Below the pieces are notes generated by a model. That model worked only from the letters and a program-made list of their open reading frames with translations. It made no database searches and was not told the DNA's origin. From Flavobacteriales bacterium (GTDB lineage: Bacteria > Bacteroidota > Bacteroidia > Flavobacteriales_F > PHOS-HE28), in the NCBI GenBank assembly GCA_044346705.1, contig JBIIYP010000013.1, positions 16,605-80,604 on the forward strand: a stretch of 64,000 bases of DNA, given 5' to 3'. The position numbers and the translations under genes are program-made. Shown in pieces: positions 31,723 to 47,148 of this stretch (the stretch's first letter is position 1; each line of letters begins with the position of its first letter).

Positions 31723-33015
31723 ATGCGCTTGCACCCCTCCACCCACCGCCGGAAAGCGATCCTCGGGATCGCCCTTTCCCTCGTCCTTCTCGGTGCCTGT
31801 AAGAAGGAATTCGATACGCCGCCTGAACGCACGATCCCGGTGGGAGGTGTGCTCACCATTGCGGACCTGCGTGCACTGTACACCGGCACCACGGTGCACT
31901 TCCCGGAGGACAGGAGCGTGTACGCCGTGGTGACCGCGGACGAGGAGAACGGCAACCTGTACAAGAACGTCTACGTGCAGGACGGCACCGGCGCCATATG
32001 CCTGCGGTTGTTGAGCGGCGGTGGGCTTTACCAAGGGGACAGCATCCGCATCTACCTGCCGGGCACGATCCTGAGCAGCTACAATGGGTTGTTGCAGCTG
32101 GACTCCGTGGACGTTGACAACAACGTGGTGAAGCAGGCCACCTTGGTGAACGTGGAACCCCTGCATGTGACCATCGACCAGATCACGCCGGCCATCCAAT
32201 CGATGCTCATCAGCCTGGACAGCGTGGAGTTCGTGACCAGCGAGCTGGGACAAACGTATGCGGACGCCGTTGGCCAGTCGAGCGAGAACCGCACCCTGAC
32301 CAGCTGCGGAGGCTCCCAAGTGCTTGTGCGCACCAGCGGGTATTCCAACTTCGCCGGCACCGTGATCCCCTCCGGCAACGGCAGCTTCGTGGCGATCGCC
32401 GGCCAGTTCGGCTCGGACATGCAGCTCTACATACGCAACATCAACGAGGTGAAGCTGGACAGCGCTCGCTGCACGGGCAATCCCATCGAGCCCTGTGATC
32501 CGGCCGGTCCGGTGGCGGAGGACTTCTCCACGGTGACCGATAACGTGGATATCGGGCTGCCCTGTTGGTTCAACATCTCCACCATCGGAAGCCGCCTTTG
32601 GCGTGGTAACGCCTACAACGCCGAACTCTATGCCGAGGCCACGGCCTTCGGCAGTTCCAACAGCCTCGATGAGGCCTGGCTCATCAGCCCCACCATGCAG
32701 GCCAGCGGCGCCAACACGCTCCAGTTCAAGACCCAGCGTGGCTTCGGTGCGGCCGGTCACGATCCGTTCGCCGCCTTCGTAAGCACCAACTTCAACGGGC
32801 TGAACGCGTCCTCCGCGGTATGGATCCCCATACCCTGCACGTACGCCACCCCAAGCACCCCTGACTTCACCTGGATCTCCAGCGGTTCCATCGACCTGTC
32901 CCAGGTGCTTCCGCAAGGCTACACCGGCACTTTCGCGGTGGGCTTCCGCTTCCAAGGCAGCGACCCCAACGGGCAGACCACCAACATGCGCCTGGACGAT
33001 GTCCAGCTCCAATAG
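31723..33015 (+). CDS. Lipoprotein with an N-terminal OB-like domain (DUF5689-like) and a C-terminal choice-of-anchor-J-like domain
   Basis: It has a lipobox (LLGAC) at the internal ATG 31723. It shares a ~110-aa module (..QDGTGAI.L....GDSIRI..) with the next gene. Confidence 0.45.
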   Translation: MRLHPSTHRRKAILGIALSLVLLGACKKEFDTPPERTIPVGGVLTIADLRALYTGTTVHFPEDRSVYAVVTADEENGNLYKNVYVQDGTGAICLRLLSGGGLYQGDSIRIYLPGTILSSYNGLLQLDSVDVDNNVVKQATLVNVEPLHVTIDQITPAIQSMLISLDSVEFVTSELGQTYADAVGQSSENRTLTSCGGSQVLVRTSGYSNFAGTVIPSGNGSFVAIAGQFGSDMQLYIRNINEVKLDSARCTGNPIEPCDPAGPVAEDFSTVTDNVDIGLPCWFNISTIGSRLWRGNAYNAELYAEATAFGSSNSLDEAWLISPTMQASGANTLQFKTQRGFGAAGHDPFAAFVSTNFNGLNASSAVWIPIPCTYATPSTPDFTWISSGSIDLSQVLPQGYTGTFAVGFRFQGSDPNGQTTNMRLDDVQLQ

Positions 33016-33049
33016 GACCTTTTCGAAACGACCCCAACACACCGATCCC

Positions 33050-34402
33050 ATGAGAACAGCAGTACTCCTTACGATGCTCGCGCTCGGCAGCGCACTACAG
33101 GCCCAGACGGTCTTCACCAGCGACCTGGAAAGCTGGACCGGCAACGTCCCCAATGGCTGGGTCGGCGCCAAGACCAACCTTCCGCAACAGGACATCACCC
33201 AATCGAACACCAACCCTCACGGTGGACTGCTTGCCGTGCGGTTGAACAACGACACCTCTTCGCATCGCCGCTTCACCACCGTACAGCAGACCGTGGTGGC
33301 CGGTACCGCATACACCATCAGCTTCTGGGTGCGCGGTCAAGGCGAAGTGCGCACCGGGCTGTTCGATGGTCGTCCGGGTGGCAGCTCCGGCTATTCCCCC
33401 TATAACGGTTACACCACCGTGAGCAGCAACACCTGGCAGCAGGTCACGCAGACGGTCTCCTGCACGAACGACACCGTGGGTGCCGAGTTCATCATTTCCG
33501 TGCGCAATACCATCGCCCCCGATCACCTGTTGATCGACGACGTGAACATCGAAGTGGCGGGAGCTCCCAGCCCCAGCAGTATCTATTCCGTCCAATTCAC
33601 CGCTGACCCGAACGGCGCCTCGCCAGTAGCCAACCAAGGCGTGATCACGGGAGGCCGGGTCACCGGTGTGGTGCCATCCGGCACGGCGAAGGGCTACTAC
33701 CTGCAGGCCGGCACCGGTGGATGGAGCGGCATCTACGTGCTCGACCCCACGAACACCGTGAACCGCGGAGACAGCGTGACGCTTGGCGCGACCGTGGAGG
33801 AGAGCTTCGGATACACCCGCCTCACCAACGTGACCAACTTCACCATCGTGAGCACTGGCAACCCCGATCCGGCGATCACCGATGTAACAACGGCCCAGGC
33901 CAACACCGAACCGTACGAAGGGGTGCTCAGCAAGGTGACCAACGTTCCTTGCGTGGTGGCTCCCAACAACTTCGGGGAATGGAAGCTGTTCAACGGCGAT
34001 TCGCTCATGGTGGACGACCAGATGTACGCTTACCCGGCCATGGTCGGCACCAGCTACAGCGTGACGGGTTGCATGTTCTACTCCTTCGGAAAATACAAGA
34101 TCGAGCCGCGTGACCTGAACGATGTGGAAGTGGCCAACAGCATCGCCGATAACGCCTATTTCGCCAATGTCACCGTAGGTCCAGTGCCTGCGAACGAGGT
34201 GCTGTACATCTCCGTTGGCGAGCTCGCCAGCGACCGCGTGGAGTACATGCTCACCGACCTGCAGGGCCGTTCGATCGCCAACGGAACCTTCACCAGCGAC
34301 CGCAACATCATCAACGTGTCCGGCTTGAACACCGGCAGCTATGTGCTCACCCTCCGGACCACGGAGGCCACGCGCAGCACGATCGTGATGGTGCAGCGCT
34401 GA
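33050..34402 (+). CDS. Secreted protein with a T9SS type A C-terminal sorting domain
   Basis: It has a signal peptide (MRTAVLLTMLALGSALQAQ). The C-terminus ...YMLTDLQGRSIANGTFTSDRNIINVSGLNTGSYVLTLRTTEATRSTIVMVQR matches the Por-secretion C-terminal domain pattern. Confidence 0.65.
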   Translation: MRTAVLLTMLALGSALQAQTVFTSDLESWTGNVPNGWVGAKTNLPQQDITQSNTNPHGGLLAVRLNNDTSSHRRFTTVQQTVVAGTAYTISFWVRGQGEVRTGLFDGRPGGSSGYSPYNGYTTVSSNTWQQVTQTVSCTNDTVGAEFIISVRNTIAPDHLLIDDVNIEVAGAPSPSSIYSVQFTADPNGASPVANQGVITGGRVTGVVPSGTAKGYYLQAGTGGWSGIYVLDPTNTVNRGDSVTLGATVEESFGYTRLTNVTNFTIVSTGNPDPAITDVTTAQANTEPYEGVLSKVTNVPCVVAPNNFGEWKLFNGDSLMVDDQMYAYPAMVGTSYSVTGCMFYSFGKYKIEPRDLNDVEVANSIADNAYFANVTVGPVPANEVLYISVGELASDRVEYMLTDLQGRSIANGTFTSDRNIINVSGLNTGSYVLTLRTTEATRSTIVMVQR

Positions 34403-36606: not shown

Positions 36607-37376
36607 GACACGGAGCGGATCAGCTGCACCACTTCGTCCGGTGCCTGGGCATGCACCCAATGGCCCGCGAAGTCGATGGTCTCCACGCGGCACTTGGGGA
36701 ACTGCTCCTTGATCTGCGGCAGGTCCTCCCGCGTGATGTAATCGCTCTGGCCACCGCGGATGAAGAGCGTCGGCGTGCGCACCGTCTCCGGACCGATGGG
36801 CGCCAGGATGTCCTTCAGGTCCCGCGCGATCACCGGCACGTTGAAACGCCAGGCGAGCTGCTCCGGCGTTCCCCAGTATAGGCTCTTCATCAGGAACTGC
36901 ACCACCCCGGGCTCGGGAATGAAACGCGCCAGGTGCTCCTCCACCTCCTGCCGCGTGTGCTTGGTGGCGAGGTCGATGTCCTGCAACGCGGCCAGGATGT
37001 GGTCGTGGTTGCGCGTGGTGTACTCGCGCGGACCGATGTCGATCACCACCAGCTGTTTCAGCAGGCCGGGGTAGAGCTGCGCGACGCGCATCGCCGTCTT
37101 GCCGCCCATGCTGTGGCCCACGAGCACCACATCGCGCAGACCTTCCTTCGCCAGCAGCTCGAACACATCCTCCGCCATCAGCGGGTAGGTGATCCGATCG
37201 GTGTGCGGGCTTCGACCGTGGTCGCGCTGGTCCACCAGCATCACCTCGTGGTCCGTGGCCAGTTCCTTGGCGATGGAGCCCAGGTTGTCGCTGCTGCCGA
37301 AGAGGCCGTGCAGGATCACGATGGGCTGACCTGTGCCCATGCGGCGGTGGAAGAGGGGGACGTGCGTGGAGGACAT
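36603..37376 (-). CDS. Alpha/beta hydrolase
   Basis: HGLFGSS near the N-terminus, the nucleophile elbow GHSMGG, and a C-terminal His. Confidence 0.75.
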   Translation of the reverse strand: MSSTHVPLFHRRMGTGQPIVILHGLFGSSDNLGSIAKELATDHEVMLVDQRDHGRSPHTDRITYPLMAEDVFELLAKEGLRDVVLVGHSMGGKTAMRVAQLYPGLLKQLVVIDIGPREYTTRNHDHILAALQDIDLATKHTRQEVEEHLARFIPEPGVVQFLMKSLYWGTPEQLAWRFNVPVIARDLKDILAPIGPETVRTPTLFIRGGQSDYITREDLPQIKEQFPKCRVETIDFAGHWVHAQAPDEVVQLIRSVS

Positions 37377-37475
37377 GGTGCGGCTTCAAAGGTATCGCGG
37401 GGTCACGCACCATCCCCTCAGGTGCCACGTCAGCACTGTTAGTAATGGGATGCACGCATTGCTCGATCGACCACT

Positions 37476-40382
37476 TTACGCCACCATCCCCCTCACAAAC
37501 ACCTCCACATACTCCTTCATCCGCTCCACGATCCGTTCCCCGATCTCCCGCGCCTTCAACACGCTCGGTCGTGCCTCAAGACATTTGAACACATCGTCCT
37601 TCAGCGGTTCCTGACCGCTGAAGATATAGGACTCGATAAGGTTGGCGAACTGCTTCTGATCCAGCCCTTCCTCTTCGCAGAGTGCTTGCAGGGCTAGTAC
37701 GCGTTGGTCCTCCCAATAGCGCTCGAACTCGTCCTGCACGCGAGCTGCGTCCTCGATCGTCGGCAGGTGCTCGGCGATGAACTTCTCGATCAGTTCGCGT
37801 TTGCTGCGCAGCTCCACCTCGCTGCCCAGCAGGGCGGCGATCTGCTTGCGGACCTGTTCGCCGCCGCCGGTGTGCTCCTTCTCTTTCAGACGCGCCAGCA
37901 GCTTTAGGATGTACGACACGTTGATCTCGTCGCGGTGCACCAGCACCAGCTCGAAGTCGATGTCCTCCAGGATGCTGTGCTTCTCCTTGGTGCGTTGGCG
38001 CTGCACGCTATCGCGAAGGTCCAGGTACTTGCTGGTATAGTCGGCGAACTGCTGCTCGGTCAGCGGCAGGTCGCGCCAGTCGAACTCGGCGTAGGTCTTC
38101 AGCACATTCAGCAGGCGGATCAGCTCTCGGAAGGCGGAGACGAAGGCCAGCTGTTGTTCCTCGTCGTGCAGGTCGTCCACCGAGCGCACGGTGGGGGCTA
38201 CTTCCAGCAGCTTCTTATAGGCGGCGATGAAAGCGGCCACCAGTTTCTTATAGGGTGGTAGGAAGATCACCTCCTTCGCGTCCTTGTTGCTGAAGAGGGC
38301 GAGCGCATCGTCCGTGGCCTTTTTCAGGTTGCGGTAGGCCACGATGTTGCCCTGGCTCTTCTTCTCGTTCAGGATGCGGTTGGTGCGGCTGTAGGCCTGG
38401 ATCAGTCCGTGGTAGCGGAGCTTCTTGTCCACGTACAGGGTGTTCACCTTCTTGGCATCGAAGCCGGTGAGCATCATGTTCACCACCAGCACCAGGTCGA
38501 TGCGGTCGCTGTCCTTGGCGTTGGCCTTCTCGCGCTCGCGCAGCTTCTTGGTGATGTCCTTGAAGTAGTTCTCCATCCCCTTCTGGTCGCTGGTGCTGAA
38601 GGCGGTGCCGAACTGCGCGTTGTAGTCGCGGATGATGCGCTCGATGCCGTCGCGGCTGTGGCCGCTGCCATAGGTGGCGGGCGGCTCGCTGGCGAGGGTC
38701 TCATCCTCGGGCAGGGCGCCCACGGCTTCCTCATCCTCCTCGTTGGTGCCGTAGCTGTAGATGGCGGCGATGCGCAGGTCGTGCGCGCCGGCCTCCTTGC
38801 GCTGGCGGAAGAGCTCGTAGTATTTCAGCAACGTGGGGATGCTGCTGATGGCGAAGAGCGCGCTGTATTCGCGGTTGTGGGTCTTGCGGTCGTGGTACTG
38901 GAGGATGTGGTCCACGATCTTGCCCAGGCGGGTATCGTCATCGAAGACCTCCGCGCGGTCGATGTCCTCCACCTCGATGTCCAGCTCCACGCCGTCCTTC
39001 TGTTTGTAGCGCCCAACGTACTCCACACTGAAGCGCAGCACGTTCTCGTCGCGGATGGCGTCGGTGATCACGTACTTGTGCAAGCACTCGCCAAAAAGCT
39101 GCTTGGTGGTGCGCTTGCCCAGCTCGTTGGTGCTGGCGTTCTCGGCGAAGATGGGTGTGCCCGTGAAGCCGAAGAGCTGCGCGTTGCTGAAGTAGCTGGT
39201 GATGGCGCCGTGCGTTTTGCCGAACTGGCTGCGGTGGCACTCATCGAAGATGAAGACCATGCGCGCGTCCTTCAGCGCTTCCACCTGCCGCTCGTGCCGC
39301 ACCTTGCTGATGGCGATGTGCAGCTTCTGGATGGTGGTGACGATCAACTTGGTGTTCGGGTCGGCCAACTGCTCCACCAGGCCGCGCGTGTTCTCGGTGG
39401 CGTCCACGCTGCCTTCCTTGTACTCGTTGAAGTCCTCCATGGTCTTGTAGTCGAGGTCCTTGCGGTCCACGACGAAGACCACCTTGGCCACCTCGGGCAG
39501 GCCCATGATCACCTGGCTGGCCTTGAAGCTCGTGAGCGTTTTGCCGCTGCCGGTGGTGTGCCAGATGTAACCGTAGTTGTTCACGCGCTCATCACCCGTT
39601 TTGGGTGTGTACTGGCGCACCTTCTCCACCAGCCCTTCCACGGCGTACACCTGGTAGGGGCGCAACACCATCATCCGCCGGTCGCGGTCGTTCATCACCA
39701 CGTAGTGGCCCAGCATGCGGCCCAGGCGGGCGATGTTCAGGAAGTCCGTGGCGAAGTCGGTCAGTTCGCTGCGGCGCCTGCTGTGGGTATCCGTCCAGTA
39801 GAAGGTCTGCGCGAAGGTGAGCGCCTCAATGGGGTTGTTCACGTAGTACTTCGTGTTGACCCCGTTGCTGATGGCGAAGAGCTGGATGTACTGGAACAGC
39901 CCGCCGTTGGCCCAGTAGCTGTGGCGCTTGTAGCGCACGATCTGGTTGAAGGCCTCCTTCAGTTCCAGCCCGCTGCGCTTCAGCTCCACCTGCACCACGG
40001 GCAGGCCGTTGCACAGGATGGTGACATCGTAGCGGTTGGTGTAGCTGCCCACGTTGGTCACCTGCTGGGTCACCTGCCATTTGTTGGCCGCAGGCTCGCC
40101 GCCATCGAAGAAGCGCACGTAGCTAACGGTGCCGTCCTCGCGCTCCAGCGCATAACGGTCGCGCAAGATCTTGCTACGGTCGTACAGCGTACCCTTCTGC
40201 AGGTGGTTCAGGATGCGGGTCATGTCCCGCTGCGTGAAGGTGGTGCCGTTGAAGGCCTCCAGCTGCGTTTGCAAGTTGGCCAGCAGGGCGGCTTCGTCCT
40301 GGATAGTCACAGGTCCATAGCCCATGCCGCGCAACTGGCTTACCAGCTCGGCTTCGAGGAGGGCTTCGGGTTGGGTGGTCAT
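37476..40382 (-). CDS. hsdR: Type I restriction enzyme R subunit
   Basis: Walker A is WHTTGSGKT, followed by the DEAH region (FIFDECHRSQ) and helicase C motifs. Length ~968 aa from the internal ATG. Confidence 0.85.
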   Translation of the reverse strand: MTTQPEALLEAELVSQLRGMGYGPVTIQDEAALLANLQTQLEAFNGTTFTQRDMTRILNHLQKGTLYDRSKILRDRYALEREDGTVSYVRFFDGGEPAANKWQVTQQVTNVGSYTNRYDVTILCNGLPVVQVELKRSGLELKEAFNQIVRYKRHSYWANGGLFQYIQLFAISNGVNTKYYVNNPIEALTFAQTFYWTDTHSRRRSELTDFATDFLNIARLGRMLGHYVVMNDRDRRMMVLRPYQVYAVEGLVEKVRQYTPKTGDERVNNYGYIWHTTGSGKTLTSFKASQVIMGLPEVAKVVFVVDRKDLDYKTMEDFNEYKEGSVDATENTRGLVEQLADPNTKLIVTTIQKLHIAISKVRHERQVEALKDARMVFIFDECHRSQFGKTHGAITSYFSNAQLFGFTGTPIFAENASTNELGKRTTKQLFGECLHKYVITDAIRDENVLRFSVEYVGRYKQKDGVELDIEVEDIDRAEVFDDDTRLGKIVDHILQYHDRKTHNREYSALFAISSIPTLLKYYELFRQRKEAGAHDLRIAAIYSYGTNEEDEEAVGALPEDETLASEPPATYGSGHSRDGIERIIRDYNAQFGTAFSTSDQKGMENYFKDITKKLREREKANAKDSDRIDLVLVVNMMLTGFDAKKVNTLYVDKKLRYHGLIQAYSRTNRILNEKKSQGNIVAYRNLKKATDDALALFSNKDAKEVIFLPPYKKLVAAFIAAYKKLLEVAPTVRSVDDLHDEEQQLAFVSAFRELIRLLNVLKTYAEFDWRDLPLTEQQFADYTSKYLDLRDSVQRQRTKEKHSILEDIDFELVLVHRDEINVSYILKLLARLKEKEHTGGGEQVRKQIAALLGSEVELRSKRELIEKFIAEHLPTIEDAARVQDEFERYWEDQRVLALQALCEEEGLDQKQFANLIESYIFSGQEPLKDDVFKCLEARPSVLKAREIGERIVERMKEYVEVFVRGMVA

Positions 40383-40518
40383 GCGGGGGCAGCGCAAGGT
40401 CGGGAATGTGGACTTTACAACAATTAACTGCCTGGCGGTGAATATCTGACGTTCATCGGTCACCCTGCATCATTGGTGATCGTACTTTAGTGGCATCCCT
40501 ACCACGGCACCTCTGAAC

Positions 40519-41268
40519 ATGTTCGAGAATTTCCCGGTCAAGGTCGTTGACCCCTTGCCCTCGCGGATAGATCCATGCCCTATTGTGCAAGCGATCTTCG
40601 AGATACGCTTCACAACGACCACGCCTTGGGCTCAACTGCCAGGCAGGGTGGAACGATTGCTGGGGGATGAGTACGTAGGTCAGGAACTCCCCCTGTTCGA
40701 ACTGCCCAACCAATTCAAGCAGCAGATCCCGGGCAGTGTTTACCTACCTCAGTACCAGTTCCACTCGGAACAGTTCGTAGTGAACCTTGCACCACAGATG
40801 ATCGGGCTGGGGGTCCAAACCATGAGCTATCCGGGTTGGTCGGTGGTGCAAGCAGAGTTGAGCACATTCCTAGACAAGATCGTTTCCGATGGATTCATGG
40901 AAGAGGGCGCACGGCTTGGCATCCGTTACAGTGACTTCTTCGAGCTGAACATCTTCGAACATATCGATCTTGACATCCATGTGAACGGGAAGGCCATCAA
41001 GGACAAGGATCGCCAGTTCACAACCGTTTTCCAGGAAGGTCCAATGACCATTCGTTTGGTTCTTATCAATGGCGCCATCATGGAGAACTCACATGGTCCA
41101 CGTCGTGGCTCGGTGTTGGATATCGATGTGGCTTTCGGTCCATTGGACTTCGATCTTAAGACCAATGTGCTGGACCGCTTCACAGAAGCCCACGATGTGA
41201 TCAAGAAGCTGTTCTTTGGCCTCGTTAAGCCTGACATGCTGGATTCACACAAGCCCGAGTACGTATGA
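40519..41268 (+). CDS. Hypothetical protein (249 aa), possibly TIGR04255-like. First gene of a 3-gene operon embedded in the type I R-M locus.
   Basis: The N-terminal ...PIVQAIFEIRF... pattern. Lower GC than the flanks. Its stop overlaps the next gene's start. Confidence 0.4.
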   Translation: MFENFPVKVVDPLPSRIDPCPIVQAIFEIRFTTTTPWAQLPGRVERLLGDEYVGQELPLFELPNQFKQQIPGSVYLPQYQFHSEQFVVNLAPQMIGLGVQTMSYPGWSVVQAELSTFLDKIVSDGFMEEGARLGIRYSDFFELNIFEHIDLDIHVNGKAIKDKDRQFTTVFQEGPMTIRLVLINGAIMENSHGPRRGSVLDIDVAFGPLDFDLKTNVLDRFTEAHDVIKKLFFGLVKPDMLDSHKPEYV

Positions 41269-41723
41269 GCAACAAGATCCACTTCGCTGAACCCCGGGTG
41301 TACAAGTTGGACGAGGATCTCCAAACCAACATGGATCCCGGCATGTGGTCCACCACGCTATCCGCAGATGAGCAGGACCTGCTTATCAAGAAGCTGGGCG
41401 ACCGCGGTTGGGGCCGTATGCTACTCTTCTCCAAGTACTACACGCCCGATTGGGGTGAAGGGAATAGGCAGGTCTCTCCGCGTGCACAAGCCACAATGAT
41501 GCGGTTCCTTGAGCATGTGACTTTCCGCAAGGGTGCCGATCCAAGTGTCTTCCTCTCCAACGATGGCGAGTTGCAGGTGGCATGGAGCGACACGAGCGGC
41601 AAAGCTGTTCAATTGCTCTTTGGCCCGAACTCGATCGAAGTGTTACATGAGGCGCAACTCCGTGAAGAGTCATTGCCATTGTCCGCTTATGATAAGCTCG
41701 CCCAGGAATTCAGTCATGTCTGA
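41265..41723 (+). CDS. Hypothetical protein (152 aa), second gene of the operon
   Basis: ATGA overlap with the upstream gene. No recognisable motif. Confidence 0.4.
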   Translation: MSNKIHFAEPRVYKLDEDLQTNMDPGMWSTTLSADEQDLLIKKLGDRGWGRMLLFSKYYTPDWGEGNRQVSPRAQATMMRFLEHVTFRKGADPSVFLSNDGELQVAWSDTSGKAVQLLFGPNSIEVLHEAQLREESLPLSAYDKLAQEFSHV

Positions 41724-42171
41724 GCAACTGGTCGGTGATGAGGAAGAGTTGGTTCGCGCTGTTTGCAGTGCAGACATGAAGGACAACGACCGTATCTCTT
41801 CCCTCCTCATGACTGGTAAGGACACATCGGTTAGCCGCACGAAGCTCATTCCTCTTACCGACCACTGGGATCTGTTCCGCCGCTGTGTAGAGAAACCCGA
41901 TGTACGTAAGCTGGAGATGATCGCCACGATCACCATTCCTGAGCTGCGCGCCATAGCGGAAGAACATTCCAAGGAGTTTAAAACACCCAAGCGCGAGATC
42001 AAAGTGCTTGTGAAGCCCAACAGCTGCTGGCGACCACCTGAAGGCCATGCGGAGATCGAGGGTAAGCTGAGCCAGGGGCTCGCGAACACCATCATCAAAA
42101 GGATGCTCTATCACAAGGAGGATAACTCCAAGTGGAACTTTGACGGCACTGGCTTGGTGGCCAATCTCTGA
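41716..42171 (+). CDS. Hypothetical protein (151 aa), third gene of the operon. Has a weak Rx5H (HEPN-like) pattern.
   Basis: The internal ATG at 41716 overlaps the upstream gene by 8 nt. The motif is ELRAIAEEH. Confidence 0.35.
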   Translation: MSEQLVGDEEELVRAVCSADMKDNDRISSLLMTGKDTSVSRTKLIPLTDHWDLFRRCVEKPDVRKLEMIATITIPELRAIAEEHSKEFKTPKREIKVLVKPNSCWRPPEGHAEIEGKLSQGLANTIIKRMLYHKEDNSKWNFDGTGLVANL

Positions 42172-42255
42172 GTAGGGCTGTTCTTGCGCGATTCCGTGTC
42201 AAGCCCGTAATGACAGCCTACACGAACATCTGCGAACAGCCCCTCAGCGGCCTCA

Positions 42256-43419
42256 TCAAACAAACATCTGTTGTAAGAGGCCGCGCTTCCACCGCTGCGC
42301 CGCCGCCACCGCCTGCGCCACGCCCGCCACCTTCGCATCCAAGGCCATCAGGAAGCCCGCGATGCGGGATTGCTCTTCGAGACAAGGAAGTGAAATGGGC
42401 ATGCCGGTGAACATCGGCAGACGCAACGATTTCACGGTCGACCCAACGGCTTGAGTAAGGAAGTACGCCCGGTGCTTGTCGATGTACTGAAACAGGAATG
42501 GACCTGTTGCTCCCTTGAAGTTCATTATCGCATAGGCTCTTTGGTGCAGGTCGAACTTTCCGGTGAAGTGTTTCGGGACGAACTCTTGCCCCTCACCGCC
42601 TACGATGATCGCCTCGGTGTCGTACAGGAATATGCTACTCCTGCGCACATCCACGGAGCGATCGAAGAAGGTGTACTGCGCGTCCAAGGATGAATCGACG
42701 CGGTTAGAAGTTCCAGTGGTGATATACGCGATCTCCCCCAACCTCTTCTCCTCCCAATCCGGGAACTCCCCGCCATCCTTCCGCTTGAAGCGCAGTTCTT
42801 GCGCGAACAGTTGTTGCACCACGCCCTTTTTGTACTGCTCCAGCAAGGCCTGCTTGCGCTTCAGCTGCTGGATCTTGCGGTCCACCGCACCCAGGAAGGC
42901 CGCGATCTTCTGCTGTTCGGGGAGGGCTTCCGGAATATTCAGTTCAAGAGCACGAAGGTCATTACTGTAGATCCTCGTGATCGTGGTCGAGTTCAGCTTC
43001 GACCAGTCGATCTTCGACAATAGCAGGAAGAGGAAGTCGTTGATGACATGCTCCTCAGGATTGTCTATCCAAACAATGTTCGAGTCCTGGTAGTAGCTAT
43101 CGTGTCCATCAAACTGCAGACACTTTCCCACTGTGCCAGCGCAAGTGATCAGCGTTTCACCAGCTCGCGGATAGTTGTATCTCTCCTTGAAGTCCTCAAA
43201 GTGCTTGCGGGTTATGTACGAATCCGGCTTCCCACCTAAGGTCCCGATCTTGTAGAATGGTACGTCTCCGCTCTCGGCGGTCTGGTTCGCGAAGATCCTC
43301 TTGCACATGAGGATCTCGCACCCATCACCAAGAGCACGCTTCGACCAATTCCCTTTGAACGCAGGGAACCGCAGCATTGGAACTTGTCGGTGCACCTTCT
43401 CCGTCACTTCGTTCATCAC
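42256..43419 (-). CDS. hsdS: Type I restriction-modification specificity subunit
   Basis: Two target-recognition domains are separated by a conserved coiled region (...LPEQQKIAAFLGAVDRKIQQL... and ...LEEQSRIAGFLMALDAKVAG...). Confidence 0.8.
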   Translation of the reverse strand: MMNEVTEKVHRQVPMLRFPAFKGNWSKRALGDGCEILMCKRIFANQTAESGDVPFYKIGTLGGKPDSYITRKHFEDFKERYNYPRAGETLITCAGTVGKCLQFDGHDSYYQDSNIVWIDNPEEHVINDFLFLLLSKIDWSKLNSTTITRIYSNDLRALELNIPEALPEQQKIAAFLGAVDRKIQQLKRKQALLEQYKKGVVQQLFAQELRFKRKDGGEFPDWEEKRLGEIAYITTGTSNRVDSSLDAQYTFFDRSVDVRRSSIFLYDTEAIIVGGEGQEFVPKHFTGKFDLHQRAYAIMNFKGATGPFLFQYIDKHRAYFLTQAVGSTVKSLRLPMFTGMPISLPCLEEQSRIAGFLMALDAKVAGVAQAVAAAQRWKRGLLQQMFV

Positions 43420-43886
43420 GCGGTTGGTGTTTCGGTATCGGGGGCTTCGCCTTCGAGAGCCTCAGGCATCGCCCCAGCCTCAGGCATCGCCCCAGCCTCA
43501 GGCATCGCCCCAGCCTCGCCTTCGAGAGCCTCAGGCTTCGGCATCGCCGGATCCGTATTCGCGTTGGCTGAGGCACTCGAAGCCAACGCTAGCAGGGCTT
43601 TGACGTCGCGGTAGGCCTTTGCGTATTCGGGGAGCTTATCGAAATCGCCGTTGATCAACGCTTCCTTCTTCTTCCTGCTCCAGCCTTGCACTTGCTTCTC
43701 GCGGTAGAAGGCTTGGTCCACGCGTGGGTACCACTCGTAGTAAACGAGCTTCACCGGTGGATGCTTGCGGGTGTGGTTGGCACCTTCGCCGGCTTCATGC
43801 TGTGCAATACGTCGCTCCAAATCGTTGGTGCTACCGGTGTAGTAGGAGCCATCGCCGCAGAGGAGTATGTACATGAAGCCTTGCAT
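43416..43886 (-). CDS. GIY-YIG nuclease family protein with a repetitive C-terminal tail
   Basis: The N-terminus is FMYILLCGDGSYYTGSTNDLERRIAQH (GIY-YIG). The C-terminus is PEAGAM x3. The stop overlaps the hsdS start (ATGA). Confidence 0.7.
   Translation of the reverse strand: MQGFMYILLCGDGSYYTGSTNDLERRIAQHEAGEGANHTRKHPPVKLVYYEWYPRVDQAFYREKQVQGWSRKKKEALINGDFDKLPEYAKAYRDVKALLALASSASANANTDPAMPKPEALEGEAGAMPEAGAMPEAGAMPEALEGEAPDTETPTA
43459..43512. repeat. 3 x 18-bp perfect tandem repeat (agcctcaggcatcgcccc) encoding PEAGAM repeats
   Basis: Read directly. Confidence 0.9.
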
Positions 43887-43960
43887 GGTGATTCAGTGTA
43901 TGCTGGCTTCGAGTGCCTCAGCCAGCGGCGAGATCGGGCCCTGAGGTTCTCGAAGGGCCA

Positions 43961-45604
43961 TCACGCGAACGGCTTTTCAATTCCCAACTCCTTGCAATAC
44001 CCCGCCAAATCGGCATCGGTCTCTTTCATCCCCGTCTCCAAAGCGACGAGCTCCTTCGCCACGGCGTTCAGGTCCACGGTTTCCTCGGCCTCGAAGGTGT
44101 CCACGTAGCGTGGTATGTTCAGGTTGTAGCCGTTGGCCTTCACTTCTTCCAACGTGGCCAGGTGGCTGTACTTCGGCTGCGCAGTACGCTCGCGGTAGGT
44201 GCTCACGATGCGGTCCACATCCGCAGGCCGCAGCTTGTTCTGCGTCTTCACCTTCTCGTAGTTCCCTTCGCCACTGGCATCGATGAAGAGGATGTTGTCG
44301 CGGTCCTTGCGCCCGCGCTTGAGCACCACGATGCTGGTGGGGATGCCGGTGCCGTAGAAGATCTGGGCGGGCAGGCCGATCACGGCATCGAGCACGTTGA
44401 GGTCGCGGATCAGGTATTCGCGGATGTGCGCCTCGGCCGCGCCGCGGAAGAGCACGCCGTGGGGCAGAACGCAGGCCAGCGTTCCTCCCTCGGTCGCCGA
44501 AGCGCCGCGCGAAGGCTGACCCTCGTCCAGGTGGTGCAGCATGTGCAGCAGGAAGGCGAAGTCGGCCTTGGTCTGCGGCGCCAGCTTGCCGGGGGCGCTG
44601 AAGCGGTCGTCCGTGGCCTTGGTGGGGCCGGGTTTCCAGTGCGCGCTGAAGGGCGGGTTGGCCACGATGGCCTCGAAGCGGTGCTCCAGGTGCTGCGGGC
44701 GCTCCAGCGTGTCCTCGTTGCGCACATCGAACTGCCGGTAATGCACATCGTGCATGATCATGTTCATGCGGCACAGGTTGAACGTGGTGGGGTTCATCTC
44801 CTGCCCGTAGATGGTGCCCACGTCCAGCACTTCGCGCTTCACGCGCAGCAGCAAGCTGCCGCTGCCGCAGGTGGGGTCGTACACGCTCTTCAGCCGTTTC
44901 TTGCCCGTGGTAACGATGCGCGCCAGCACGGTGCTCACCTCCTGCGGGGTATAGAACTCACCGGCCTTCTTGCCCGCGCCGCTGGCGAATTGCGCAATGA
45001 GGTATTCGTAGGCATCGCCCAGCACATCGTGCGCGGGGTCGTTCAGCTCGAAGTCCACGGTGGCCAGCTTGCGCAGCACCTTCACCACCAGGTTGTTCTT
45101 GTCCTTTTCGCCCTTGCCCAGCTTGCTGCTGGTAAGGTCCAGGTCCTCGAAGAGGTTGGCGAAATCATCCTCGCTCTCGTGCCCGCGCGTGCTGTCGCTG
45201 ATGCGGTTGAGCACCTTTGTGAGTTTGTCCAGGATGAAGGGCGCATCGGCACCTTCGGCCTCTTCGCCGCTGGGCACGATGTTCTTGAAGAGCTCTTCGG
45301 GCTCCAGGAAGTAGCCGAGGTGTTCCACAGCCAAGAGGCGTACCTCGTTCAGGTAGGCATCACGGTCGGCGTCCTTCACTCTCTCACCCTTTCCCTCTTT
45401 CACTTTCTCACCTTTCAGCAGGTCATCATAGCTCACGCCGTCCGGGTGCAGGATCTCGTCGGCATAGATCTCCATCTTCTCGCTGAGGTACTTGTAGAAG
45501 ATGAAGCCGAGGATGTAGTCGCGGAAGTCGTCCGCGCTCATCTTGCCGCGCAGGGCGTTGGCGATGTCCCAGAGGGTGGCTTCGAGGCGTTGTTTGGAGG
45601 TCAT
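43961..45604 (-). CDS. hsdM: Type I restriction-modification methyltransferase (N6-adenine) subunit
   Basis: It has the HsdM N-terminal domain (LWDIANALRG...), the SAM motif (VYDPTCGSGSLL) and NPPF (IVANPPFS). Confidence 0.85.
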   Translation of the reverse strand: MTSKQRLEATLWDIANALRGKMSADDFRDYILGFIFYKYLSEKMEIYADEILHPDGVSYDDLLKGEKVKEGKGERVKDADRDAYLNEVRLLAVEHLGYFLEPEELFKNIVPSGEEAEGADAPFILDKLTKVLNRISDSTRGHESEDDFANLFEDLDLTSSKLGKGEKDKNNLVVKVLRKLATVDFELNDPAHDVLGDAYEYLIAQFASGAGKKAGEFYTPQEVSTVLARIVTTGKKRLKSVYDPTCGSGSLLLRVKREVLDVGTIYGQEMNPTTFNLCRMNMIMHDVHYRQFDVRNEDTLERPQHLEHRFEAIVANPPFSAHWKPGPTKATDDRFSAPGKLAPQTKADFAFLLHMLHHLDEGQPSRGASATEGGTLACVLPHGVLFRGAAEAHIREYLIRDLNVLDAVIGLPAQIFYGTGIPTSIVVLKRGRKDRDNILFIDASGEGNYEKVKTQNKLRPADVDRIVSTYRERTAQPKYSHLATLEEVKANGYNLNIPRYVDTFEAEETVDLNAVAKELVALETGMKETDADLAGYCKELGIEKPFA

Positions 45605-45705
45605 GGTGGGGCTCGCCGAAGTTTCGGCGGGGGTGAAGGGGTGTAAAATACCTATGCGGAAGCGAACGGGAGCCTCGTGGCTTGCCTGCGCATCCTGCTC
45701 CACCC

Positions 45706-46419
45706 CTACCGCAACTCCCGCAAGTACAACCCCACCGTATTCTCCAACCCGAACCGCAGCGCATCGCAGATCAGCGCGTGGCCGATGGAGACCTCCAGCA
45801 GCCCGGGCACCTGCTGCGCGAAGTAGCGGAGGTTATCGCGGTCCAGGTCGTGGCCGGCGTTGAGGCCGAGGCCGAGTTGGGCGGCGCGTTCACCTGCCCG
45901 TACGAAAGGTGCGACGACAGCCTCGCGATCGGTGTGATAGCCTGCGGCATAGGGCTCGGTGTAGAGCTCGATGCGGTCGGTGCCGGTGTCGGCGGCGTGG
46001 CCGATCAGCTCCAGGTCGGTGCCCATGAAGAGGGAGGTGCGGATGCCGGCGCCTTTGAAACGCGCGATCACGTCCTGCAGGAAGGCCTTGTGCGTGCGCG
46101 CTTCCCAGCCGGCGTTGCTGGTGAGCGCCTCGGGCGGATCGGGCACCAGCGTCACCTGCGCGGGGCGCACCTCCAGCACCAGCGCGATGAAGTCGTCCGT
46201 GGGGTAGCCCTCGATGTTGAACTCCGTGGTGAGCAGGGGCTTCAGGGCGCGCACATCGCTGCGGCGGATGTGGCGTTCGTCAGGCCGGGGATGCACGGTG
46301 ATGCCCTGCGCGCCGTAGCGCTCGATGAGCAGCGCGGTGGCCACCACATCGGGGTTGTTGCCGCCGCGTGCGTTGCGCAGGGTGGCGAGCTTATTGATGT
46401 TGACGCTGAGCTGGGTCAT
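45706..46419 (-). CDS. pdxJ: Pyridoxine 5'-phosphate synthase
   Basis: [19 protein letters not shown]... over ~238 aa. The upstream 500+ aa of the track ORF is an artefact. Confidence 0.8.
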
Positions 46420-46485
46420 CGGTTCAGTATACCTTGCTCCCGCTAACGAAGCGTCCAAAGGTAGAACGGACGCGGCCCGCAGCCC

Positions 46486-47148
46486 ATGCACGCCATCGAC
46501 CTGATCACCAACGAGATCCCCCCGCTCCGCCCGAACGACACGGTGGCGCGTGCCTTGGACTGGATGGAAGAGTTCAAGGTGAGCCACCTGCCCGTGGTGC
46601 AGGAACAGCGCCTGGTGGGCATGGTGAAGGACAGCGTGCTGATCGACCGCAACGACGCCAAGGCCTTGGTGGAGAGCATCATGGAACGGGTGGAGGTGCC
46701 GTTCGTCCGGGGTGGGCAGCACATCTACGACGTGATGAAGCTGATGGTGGAGCGCGGCCTCACGGTGGTGCCTGTGCTGGACATGACCGGCAATTACCTG
46801 GGCGCGGTGAACGAACACATGGCGCTGCGCCGCCTGGCCGAGGTCACCAACATGCGCGAGCCCGGCAGCGTGGTGGTGCTGGAGCTGAACATGAACGACT
46901 ACAGCCTGCAGGAGATCGCCCGCATCGTGGAAGGCAACGACGCGCGTGTGCTGAGCGTGTACTGCCACACGATCGAGGAGAGCGCGCGGCTGGAGGTGAC
47001 CCTGAAGATCAACCGCGAGGACATCAGCGACATCCTGCAGACCTTCGAGCGCTTCGAGTACGAGGTGAAGACCACCTTCCAGGGATCGCGCTTCAACGAT
47101 GACCTGCGCGGTCGTTTCGATGAGCTGATGCGCTTCATCAATCTCTAA
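46486..47148 (+). CDS. CBS-pair domain protein with a C-terminal ACT-like domain
   Basis: Two CBS motifs (...VSHLPVV..., ...[15 protein letters not shown]...). Confidence 0.6.

Follow-up and report, generated by a model that had tools for sequence, protein, structure and literature searches.

We analysed a 64,000-nucleotide stretch of DNA from a Flavobacteriales bacterium (GenBank assembly GCA_044346705.1, contig JBIIYP010000013.1, positions 16,605 to 80,604 of the forward strand; the window). A trio of small genes in it, here called g1, g2 and g3, lies between the hsdR and hsdS genes of a type I restriction-modification (R-M) locus. An earlier reading of the bare sequence (the original prediction) had singled out these three plus-strand open reading frames (ORFs) as a coupled operon and a candidate undescribed defence module, and the ORF coordinates agree with the sizes given there. 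The trio, its R-M neighbours and the signals between them are arranged as follows, in positions of the window.

40519–41268, plus strand: g1, 249 residues, TIGR04255-family protein
41265–41723, plus strand: g2, 152 residues, undescribed family
41716–42171, plus strand: g3, 151 residues, undescribed family, predicted ADP-ribosyltransferase (ART) fold
37476–40382, minus strand: hsdR, type I restriction subunit, divergent from the trio, with Pfam, NCBIfam and PADLOC matches
42256–43419, minus strand: hsdS, type I specificity subunit with two target-recognition domains, convergent with the trio
43416–43886, minus strand: ORF with a GIY-YIG domain, 156 residues, between hsdS and hsdM (PF01541, 6.8e-19)
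43961–45604, minus strand: hsdM, type I methyltransferase subunit (PF02384, 3.6e-100; PF12161; TIGR00497, 6.9e-118)
40383–40518, no strand: divergent intergenic region between hsdR and g1, with candidate promoter motifs from a six-locus alignment
42168–42248, no strand: long hairpin between the convergent g3 and hsdS, from RNA folding

The g1/g2 junction reads gtATGAgc, an overlap of 4 nucleotides, and the g2/g3 junction reads ATGtcTGA, an overlap of 8; both had been called before, at 41265 and 41716. HsdR, HsdM and HsdS are all present beside the trio as full-length ORFs. HsdR matches HSDR_N (PF04313), SWI2_SNF2 (PF18766), T1R_D3-like (PF22679) and EcoR124_C (PF12008), together with TIGR00348 (3.5e-138) and the PADLOC model REase_I (2.4e-294); HsdS matches PF01420 in two stretches (4.1e-35) and the PADLOC model Specificity_I (4.5e-69). 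The divergent trio does separate hsdR from hsdS and hsdM as originally described, but the latter two genes are not contiguous, the GIY-YIG ORF standing between them. The low guanine-plus-cytosine (GC) content of 52-55% ascribed to the trio and hsdS was also found (0.524 for g1, 0.547 for g2, 0.535 for g3 and 0.551 for hsdS). The backbone had been put at about 65% and measures about 62% (0.622 for the whole window, 0.613 for hsdR and 0.621 for hsdM).

The order and coupling of the three genes were kept at 70 loci with identities as low as about 30%. Close relatives (55-92% identity; L001-L011 in our numbering of loci) always carried g1-g2-g3 with the same overlaps, and relatives at 37-47% identity (L012-L014, L015-L017 and L018) carried all three genes with a g3 of only 127-129 residues. 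Four g3 homologues more remote than these came out of an exhaustive profile search: three (L024, L025 and L026) stand third, after a TIGR04255 gene and a g2-like gene, and at the fourth (L023) the g2-like gene was present and the contig ended before the first gene could be identified. In the distant trios the first gene matched TIGR04255 above its cut-off with E values of 5e-12 to 7e-27 and the second matched the g2 profile with E values of 2e-16 to 2e-31. Seeding a metagenome scan with g1 gave 80 loci, and g2 and then g3 followed wherever the downstream DNA sufficed, with about two exceptions (L069 and L103). g2 was always found between g1 and g3 at the trio loci examined. The coupling claimed for the window copy thus proved general: the g1/g2 junction is a 4-nucleotide overlap in 55 of the 70 complete trios and a 1-nucleotide overlap in another 9, and the g2/g3 spacing stays between -20 and +7 nucleotides in all 70. 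Small, adjacent, co-oriented, translationally coupled and strictly co-occurring, the genes have the organization of a type II-like or tripartite toxin-antitoxin module. Their proteins are each conserved in 49-55 unique sequences, and comparison with relatives gave a dN/dS of 0.03-0.21 in the 6 of 12 cases with an estimable dS (dS was saturated in the other 6). All three ORFs are real genes under purifying selection.

L101 (10001-11346) and L102 (2074-3419) hold a variant trio in which the g1 and g2 frames overlap by 275 nucleotides and g2 is shortened; a frameshift, a fusion or decay could explain this. At L004 (120-1697, ERZ1714339 contig_309) the trio, hsdM and hsdS are split into many short ORFs, the sign of either a decayed locus or an error-rich assembly. 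On a 2-kb metagenome contig (L028, B570J29032_109891127), g1 is 100% identical to the window copy and hsdR lies upstream; to judge by this identity, the window organism or a near-identical one has already been sampled in a public JGI metagenome.

In the clade of the window (L001, L002, L006 and L007), the trio likewise runs divergently from hsdR, between hsdR and hsdS/hsdM. Only hsdR is visible beside the trio at L005, L028 and L031, where the contigs end before hsdS/hsdM. L006, the Flavobacteriales metagenome-assembled genome contig JAGQVR010000053.1, was the sole relative in the scan of the genome collection. None of the window genes flanking the R-M cassette was found in the flanks of the relatives; since these flanks are unrelated between loci, the cassette, trio included, moves as a unit. 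The same observation, together with distant trios in integrase or toxin-antitoxin islands, bears out the horizontal acquisition originally proposed. The hsdR of the window is 88-89% identical to those of L001 and L005 while the trio is only 57-84% identical, indicating that the trio evolves faster than the neighbouring enzyme; hsdS shares no more than 30-56% identity with its counterparts in related cassettes. Further genes have entered the gap between hsdR and hsdS in some relatives. That of L006 (6738-11469) also holds an AAA_15/AAA_21 ATPase, its 162-residue partner, an RNase_T-BRCT exonuclease and a 647-residue protein without a family, cargo that marks the gap as a hotspot for defence-type genes. 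The gap of L001 contains three extra small ORFs, and at L008 an IS21 element lies next to g3.

In independent lineages beyond the clade of the window, too, the trio adjoins restriction genes. At L081 and L107 it follows hsdM-hsdS-hsdR, and at L070 an HsdR-like gene abuts it head-to-head. A type ISP enzyme on the same strand ends 11 nucleotides before g1 at L055; a type IIG enzyme (Eco57I/TaqI_C/MmeI-like) overlaps the start of g1 by 4-8 nucleotides at L101/L102 and L090, and a partial match at a contig end suggests the same arrangement at L073. Mrr and a PLD-family protein adjoin the trio at L026, and a 1651-residue protein combining a superfamily 1 helicase with a restriction endonuclease does so at L064. 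Counted over non-redundant lineages, restriction genes (type I, ISP, IIG, Mrr) abut the trio in about 10 of 30. Pfam annotation of the 121 nearest neighbours at 29 trio loci gave ResIII, Eco57I, Phage_integrase, TaqI_C and N6_Mtase as the top families (3 each), followed by HSDR_N, SWI2_SNF2, AAA_15/21 and Zeta_toxin (2 each); in the corresponding PADLOC census the type IIG, type I and DrmMI models ranked first. Other trios sit in an island with integrase, ParA, SocA-Panacea, RAMA and M78 genes (L012-L014), or beside DUF4258/DUF2283 toxin-antitoxin genes and a DUF1016 helicase (L015-L017). The check originally suggested, whether homologues lie next to R-M or defence genes, came out positive for about one third of independent lineages, in which several restriction types abut the trio, and the consistent housekeeping context that had been named as counting against a defence role was not what we saw. 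Embedding in a type I R-M locus does not define the trio, most trio loci having no type I system nearby. A search of 72,556 plasmids gave a single, distant match to g1 and none to g3; among 2.9 million viral contigs the trio subfamily was essentially absent, with one distant match to g1.

The proposed effector is g3. As a single sequence or as a profile it had no match in Pfam, NCBIfam, PADLOC, PHROGs or PDB sequences, and an exhaustive search of 1.84 billion representatives with the profile retrieved only 90 clusters, all of short stand-alone proteins of 80-199 residues. Its AlphaFold2 model (predicted local distance difference test (pLDDT) 88.5, predicted template-modelling score (pTM) 0.82) is a mixed alpha/beta fold with 8 or more strands, and the best structural matches of the model were Tpt1/KptA and DarT. 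ARTs are divided into the clades R-S-E, H-Y-[EDQ] and H-H-h, with the active-site triad carried on strands 1, 2 and 5 (PMC9503650). In the g3 model, R14 (48 of 49 sequences) lies on strand 1 (residues 11-17), S38 (49 of 49) lies on strand 2 (37-41) within an S-V-S-R motif, and H111-A-E113 lies on strand 5 (111-115) after a Pro-containing loop, with H111 present in 48 and E113 in 40 of the 49 sequences. E10, D23, R41, R55 and R64 are likewise (near-)invariant. The model points to an ART-like fold for g3, and its conserved residues would be laid out as in the R-S-E clade, in an R-S-(H-x-E) pattern. A weak Rx5H (HEPN-like) motif had been pointed out in g3 (R78...H84), with structure prediction suggested as a check for a HEPN fold. 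The model returned was mixed alpha/beta rather than all-helical; R78 and H84 are absent from the lists of positions conserved in at least 90% and in at least 93% (49 sequences) of homologues, and R78 is a lysine in two close homologues. The HEPN reading of g3 was set aside.

g1 is a bona fide member of TIGR04255. It matched the family hidden Markov model (HMM) at 75.9 bits (cut-off 30; E value 4.3e-21) over model positions 1-250 of 252, so that the TIGR04255-like pattern suspected at its N-terminus extends to a full-length match above the curated NCBIfam cut-off. It also matched phrog_5464, a PHROG of no known function. HMM searches of the trio against Pfam, NCBIfam and PADLOC, as originally suggested, identified g1 in this way and matched nothing in g2 or g3; no PADLOC model matched any of the three proteins, in line with the statement that no known defence-system domain could be assigned to them from the sequence alone. 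NCBIfam describes the TIGR04255 proteins as 'sporadically distributed' and uncharacterised, and they are annotated across bacteria, archaea and phages without a known role; a full-text literature search on the family name found no paper mentioning the family. The AlphaFold2 model of g1 (pLDDT 91.5, pTM 0.88) has a predicted fold of a duplicated beta-alpha-beta4-alpha two-layer sandwich resembling TBP/AdoMetDC. Its (near-)invariant residues, E28, R30, E113, R132, R136, Y137, R179, N184, D201, D203, H225 and K229, are mostly charged and sit on the strands and the last helix of the model, a conserved sheet face that suggests a ligand site of the phosphate or nucleotide type or a catalytic site.

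TIGR04255 homologues with 21-28% identity to g1 occur in several mobile elements (L019, 4001-4732; L020, 1117-1848; L021, 4001-4681; L022, 3621-4355). Such a gene comes directly after the cI repressor in Pseudomonas phage VW-6S, adjoins the portal gene in the P2-like phage Dobby, is present in Sulfurimonas phage SNW-1 and stands right after the integrase of a 15-kb circular Phocaeicola element. The distant TIGR04255 genes of temperate phages occupy lysogeny or moron slots, which we count in favour of the conflict role proposed below. The small ORFs 3' of the phage and Phocaeicola genes had no homology to g2 or g3. The confinement of the g2-g3 pair to a single subfamily of TIGR04255 suggests a modular role for g1 and interchangeable partners for TIGR04255 proteins.

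The middle gene, g2, is the least conserved of the three, its median identity to the window copy being 35% as against 43% for g1 and 41% for g3. Neither the single sequence nor the profile matched anything in Pfam, NCBIfam, PADLOC, PHROG or PDB sequences, and only 12 clusters were retrieved among 5.8 billion proteins.

We propose, with confidence about evenly balanced, that the three genes form an autonomous, mobile conflict module, toxin-antitoxin-like or acting by abortive infection, with an ART-fold effector, and that it is lodged here in the hsdR-hsdS gap. In this module g3 would transfer ADP-ribose from NAD+ to a macromolecule of the cell or the phage, or would just consume NAD+, and its activity would arrest the infected cell. 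A nucleic-acid or phosphate acceptor is plausible in view of the many invariant Arg and His residues of g3 and its structural matches to Tpt1/KptA and DarT. g2 may be a neutraliser or adaptor that holds g3 inactive, a role suggested by its overlapping frame immediately upstream of g3 and by its being the fastest-evolving of the three. g1 could then serve as a sensor or regulator that couples the release of g3 to an infection cue. The trio would form a second defence layer, and its recurrent tight coupling to unrelated types of restriction enzyme suggests that it backs up or guards restriction, with PrrC-EcoprrI and the DarTG2 of a type I R-M locus as precedents. In a more general form of this idea, which we judge unlikely, the trio would be an undescribed immune system in which the TIGR04255 protein and g2 monitor co-encoded restriction enzymes (types I, ISP, IIG and IV) or sense phage anti-restriction factors, and subversion of restriction would unleash a nucleic-acid-modifying ART of a new, minimal clade. 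The trio is a good candidate for a new anti-phage or toxin-antitoxin-like system, and the earlier interpretation of the locus as a defence candidate is partly supported, context and effector fold both agreeing with it.

Several observations weigh against the conflict module. The ART assignment comes from one AlphaFold model built on a shallow alignment of 12 sequences, the five models ranging in pLDDT from 55 to 88.5. A Foldseek search of the g3 model against the PDB gave nothing significant, and neither Pfam (applied to 63 family members) nor a profile comparison with PDB sequences placed g3 in a described ART family. The presumed catalytic E113 is kept in 82% of unique g3 sequences and is V, I or R in 8 of 49, so either it is not essential or those copies of g3 are inactive. 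We consider it quite unlikely that g3 is not an ART at all. The search with the g1 fold gave no functional match, and neither an antitoxin domain nor a DNA-binding one can be recognised in g2. In about two thirds of the lineages the nearest neighbours include no recognised restriction or defence gene, and at many trio loci the genes alongside are ordinary ones, for example glycoside hydrolases, flagellar genes, transporters or sensor kinases. Such loci would also suit an addiction module that stabilises its host mobile DNA, whether R-M cassette or integrative island, by post-segregational killing and does not stop phage. The architecture and the ART-like effector fit addiction as well as they fit defence, and trios are found on integrase-bearing islands and beside other toxin-antitoxin genes. 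We nevertheless judge addiction unlikely: the repeated same-strand or abutting linkage to four restriction types is more specific than general carriage by mobile elements would be, and on the plasmids searched g3 was absent and g1 had its one distant match, the subfamily being nearly absent from the viral contigs as well.

The linkage to restriction genes could alternatively mean that the trio is an accessory of restriction that would modify or regulate either the enzyme next to it or the DNA on which that enzyme acts; ADP-ribosylation might, for instance, control restriction or mark DNA. Such a role would fit the placing of the trio in several lineages, where it lies directly downstream of a type IIG or ISP gene, overlaps one or adjoins hsdR, and also the 88-89% identity retained by the hsdR beside it while hsdS varies. 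However, the partner enzymes differ in mechanism from type to type, an argument against a specific partnership between enzymes, and about two thirds of the lineages had no restriction gene in the flanks examined; we regard an accessory role as very unlikely. The structural match to Tpt1/KptA raises the further alternative of RNA repair or another housekeeping task, with g3 as a minimal Tpt1/KptA-like NAD+-dependent phosphotransferase and g1 and g2 as its cofactors, for instance undoing the damage done by an anticodon nuclease. In Tpt1, most of the R-H-R-R tetrad resides in a separate RNA-binding N-lobe. g3 is only as large as one lobe, aligns over only 90-95 residues of Tpt1 and lacks that N-lobe; we take it to correspond to one lobe only. 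No RNA ligase, 2H or RtcB family was among the top families of the neighbour census, and the sporadic, mobile and restriction-linked distribution of the trio is unlike that of housekeeping genes. RNA repair appears extremely improbable.

ART toxins and R-M-embedded defence are established concepts, and the trio falls within both. In its proposed working it resembles most closely the DarTG2 module found in a type I R-M locus, or the RES-type and CmdTAC-type ART toxin systems. In the 'RRDM' island of enteropathogenic Escherichia coli (EPEC), DarTG2 sits in a type I R-M system, flanked by hsdS and hsdR (PMC12255303). Like the trio with its predicted ART, it is an ART-fold module in the hsdS-hsdR gap and a multi-gene co-transcribed unit and, as the trio is proposed to be, a second layer beside restriction. 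It differs in having two genes rather than three and in being co-oriented with hsdR, from which the trio diverges, and the R-S-E-like residue pattern of g3 is unlike that of DarT. The DarT-family toxin and the macrodomain antitoxin DarG that make up DarTG are missing from the trio: it matched no PADLOC defence-system model and had no Pfam match, and thus gave no sign of DarT or a macrodomain. TgvAB is likewise found inside a type I R-M system (PMC11411939), and a survey has put forward 'guilt by embedding' as a way of discovering systems (bioRxiv 10.1101/2024.01.29.577857); the two show that the R-M gap often carries independent defence systems.

CmdTAC shares with the trio a tripartite operon with an ART-fold effector, which in g3 is predicted (PMC11618068). 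It is a toxin-antitoxin-chaperone system in which an mRNA ADP-ribosyltransferase mediates abortive infection and the antitoxin is neutralised through the third protein (PMC11618068). The trio has neither the SecB-like chaperone nor the chaperone-addiction tail of such systems; g1 has a predicted TBP/AdoMetDC-like sandwich. The residue inferred to be catalytic in CmdT is a tyrosine (Y41) and CmdT resembles exotoxin A; the toxin gene comes first in CmdTAC, whereas the effector gene is last in the trio, for which PADLOC gave no match. We had considered CmdTAC as a precedent for embedding in a type I R-M locus and dropped it, as PMC11618068 mentions no hsd or type I restriction; we retain it as a functional analogue only. 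From RES-Xre, ParST and MbcTA, toxin-antitoxin pairs whose RES toxins have the ART fold, the trio differs in that g3 has no RES match in Pfam, g2 has no Xre/helix-turn-helix or DUF2384 domain, and there is an extra TIGR04255 gene. Tpt1/KptA and g3 are 9-12% identical and have entirely different genomic contexts, Tpt1 belonging to the H-H-h clade and g3 looking R-S-E-like (clades as in PMC9503650).

PrrC, like the trio in the window, is embedded in a type I R-M locus. With EcoprrI it is a latent suicide anticodon nuclease of a type Ic R-M locus and the model of a 'guard of restriction'. It has been called 'almost exclusively type I-embedded' (bioRxiv 10.1101/2024.01.29.577857). PrrC is, however, one gene, encoding a tRNA nuclease with an ABC-type ATPase domain, whereas the trio is ART-like and also occurs without R-M. 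Within the TIGR04255 family itself, of which g1 is a member, only one subfamily is coupled to g2 and g3. As judged from signatures of DarT, macrodomain, RES, Xre, SecB and CmdT, all of them missing, the trio is a member of none of these systems.

The GIY-YIG ORF, which is context and lies outside the trio, overlaps the start of hsdS by 4 nucleotides and is missing from the gene tables of L001, where hsdS abuts hsdM, and of L007, which has an uncalled gap of 281 nucleotides. The C-terminal half of the ORF contains three perfect tandem repeats of 18 nucleotides (43458-43517), encoding AGAMPE repeats, and a 24-nucleotide inverted repeat of 96% identity (43562-43585 and 43904-43927) brackets the stretch that encodes the GIY-YIG domain, hinting that the ORF is a small mobile insertion. 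The divergent region between hsdR and g1 measures 136 nucleotides. When it was aligned from six related loci, whose coding identity is only 55-90%, ATTAAC (40423-40428), GTGAATAT (40438-40445) and TACTTTAG (40483-40490, with TACnTT at 40483-40488) were (near-)invariant. TACnTT resembles the Bacteroidota -7 element TAnnTTTG, and we infer from this conservation that the three are candidate promoter or operator elements. Consensus scans for sigma-70 promoters and terminators were uninformative, and the former gave no convincing sigma-70 promoter. Folding of the RNA of 42160-42270 gave -33 kcal/mol (z -2.94 against shuffles), with a long hairpin and no T-tract; the hairpin in the g3/hsdS gap is probably a bidirectional terminator. 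An Rfam scan of 37000-46500 matched no family. Further along the window, 32999-34402 on the plus strand encodes a secreted-looking protein of 467 residues, whose C-terminal end resembles, by eye, a type IX secretion sorting domain; this would agree with a Bacteroidota source of the window, as the Flavobacteriales relative L006 does.

If the conflict reading holds, the trio would be a three-component addition to the ADP-ribosylation-based immune and toxin-antitoxin repertoire, in which all three families are uncharacterised, g2 and g3 lying outside Pfam and none of the three being in PADLOC. As a putative ART, g3 is compact (127-177 residues) and might interest enzymologists or find use as a tool. 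Should the trio be only a selfish addiction cassette, its interest would be modest. The trio offers a possible first functional lead on TIGR04255; if it does guard restriction, the family would gain a first function as a sensor of infection that bacteria and temperate phages reuse by combining it with different effectors. Its coupling to four kinds of restriction enzyme raises the question of whether suicide effectors commonly guard restriction, which would generalise the PrrC-EcoprrI example.

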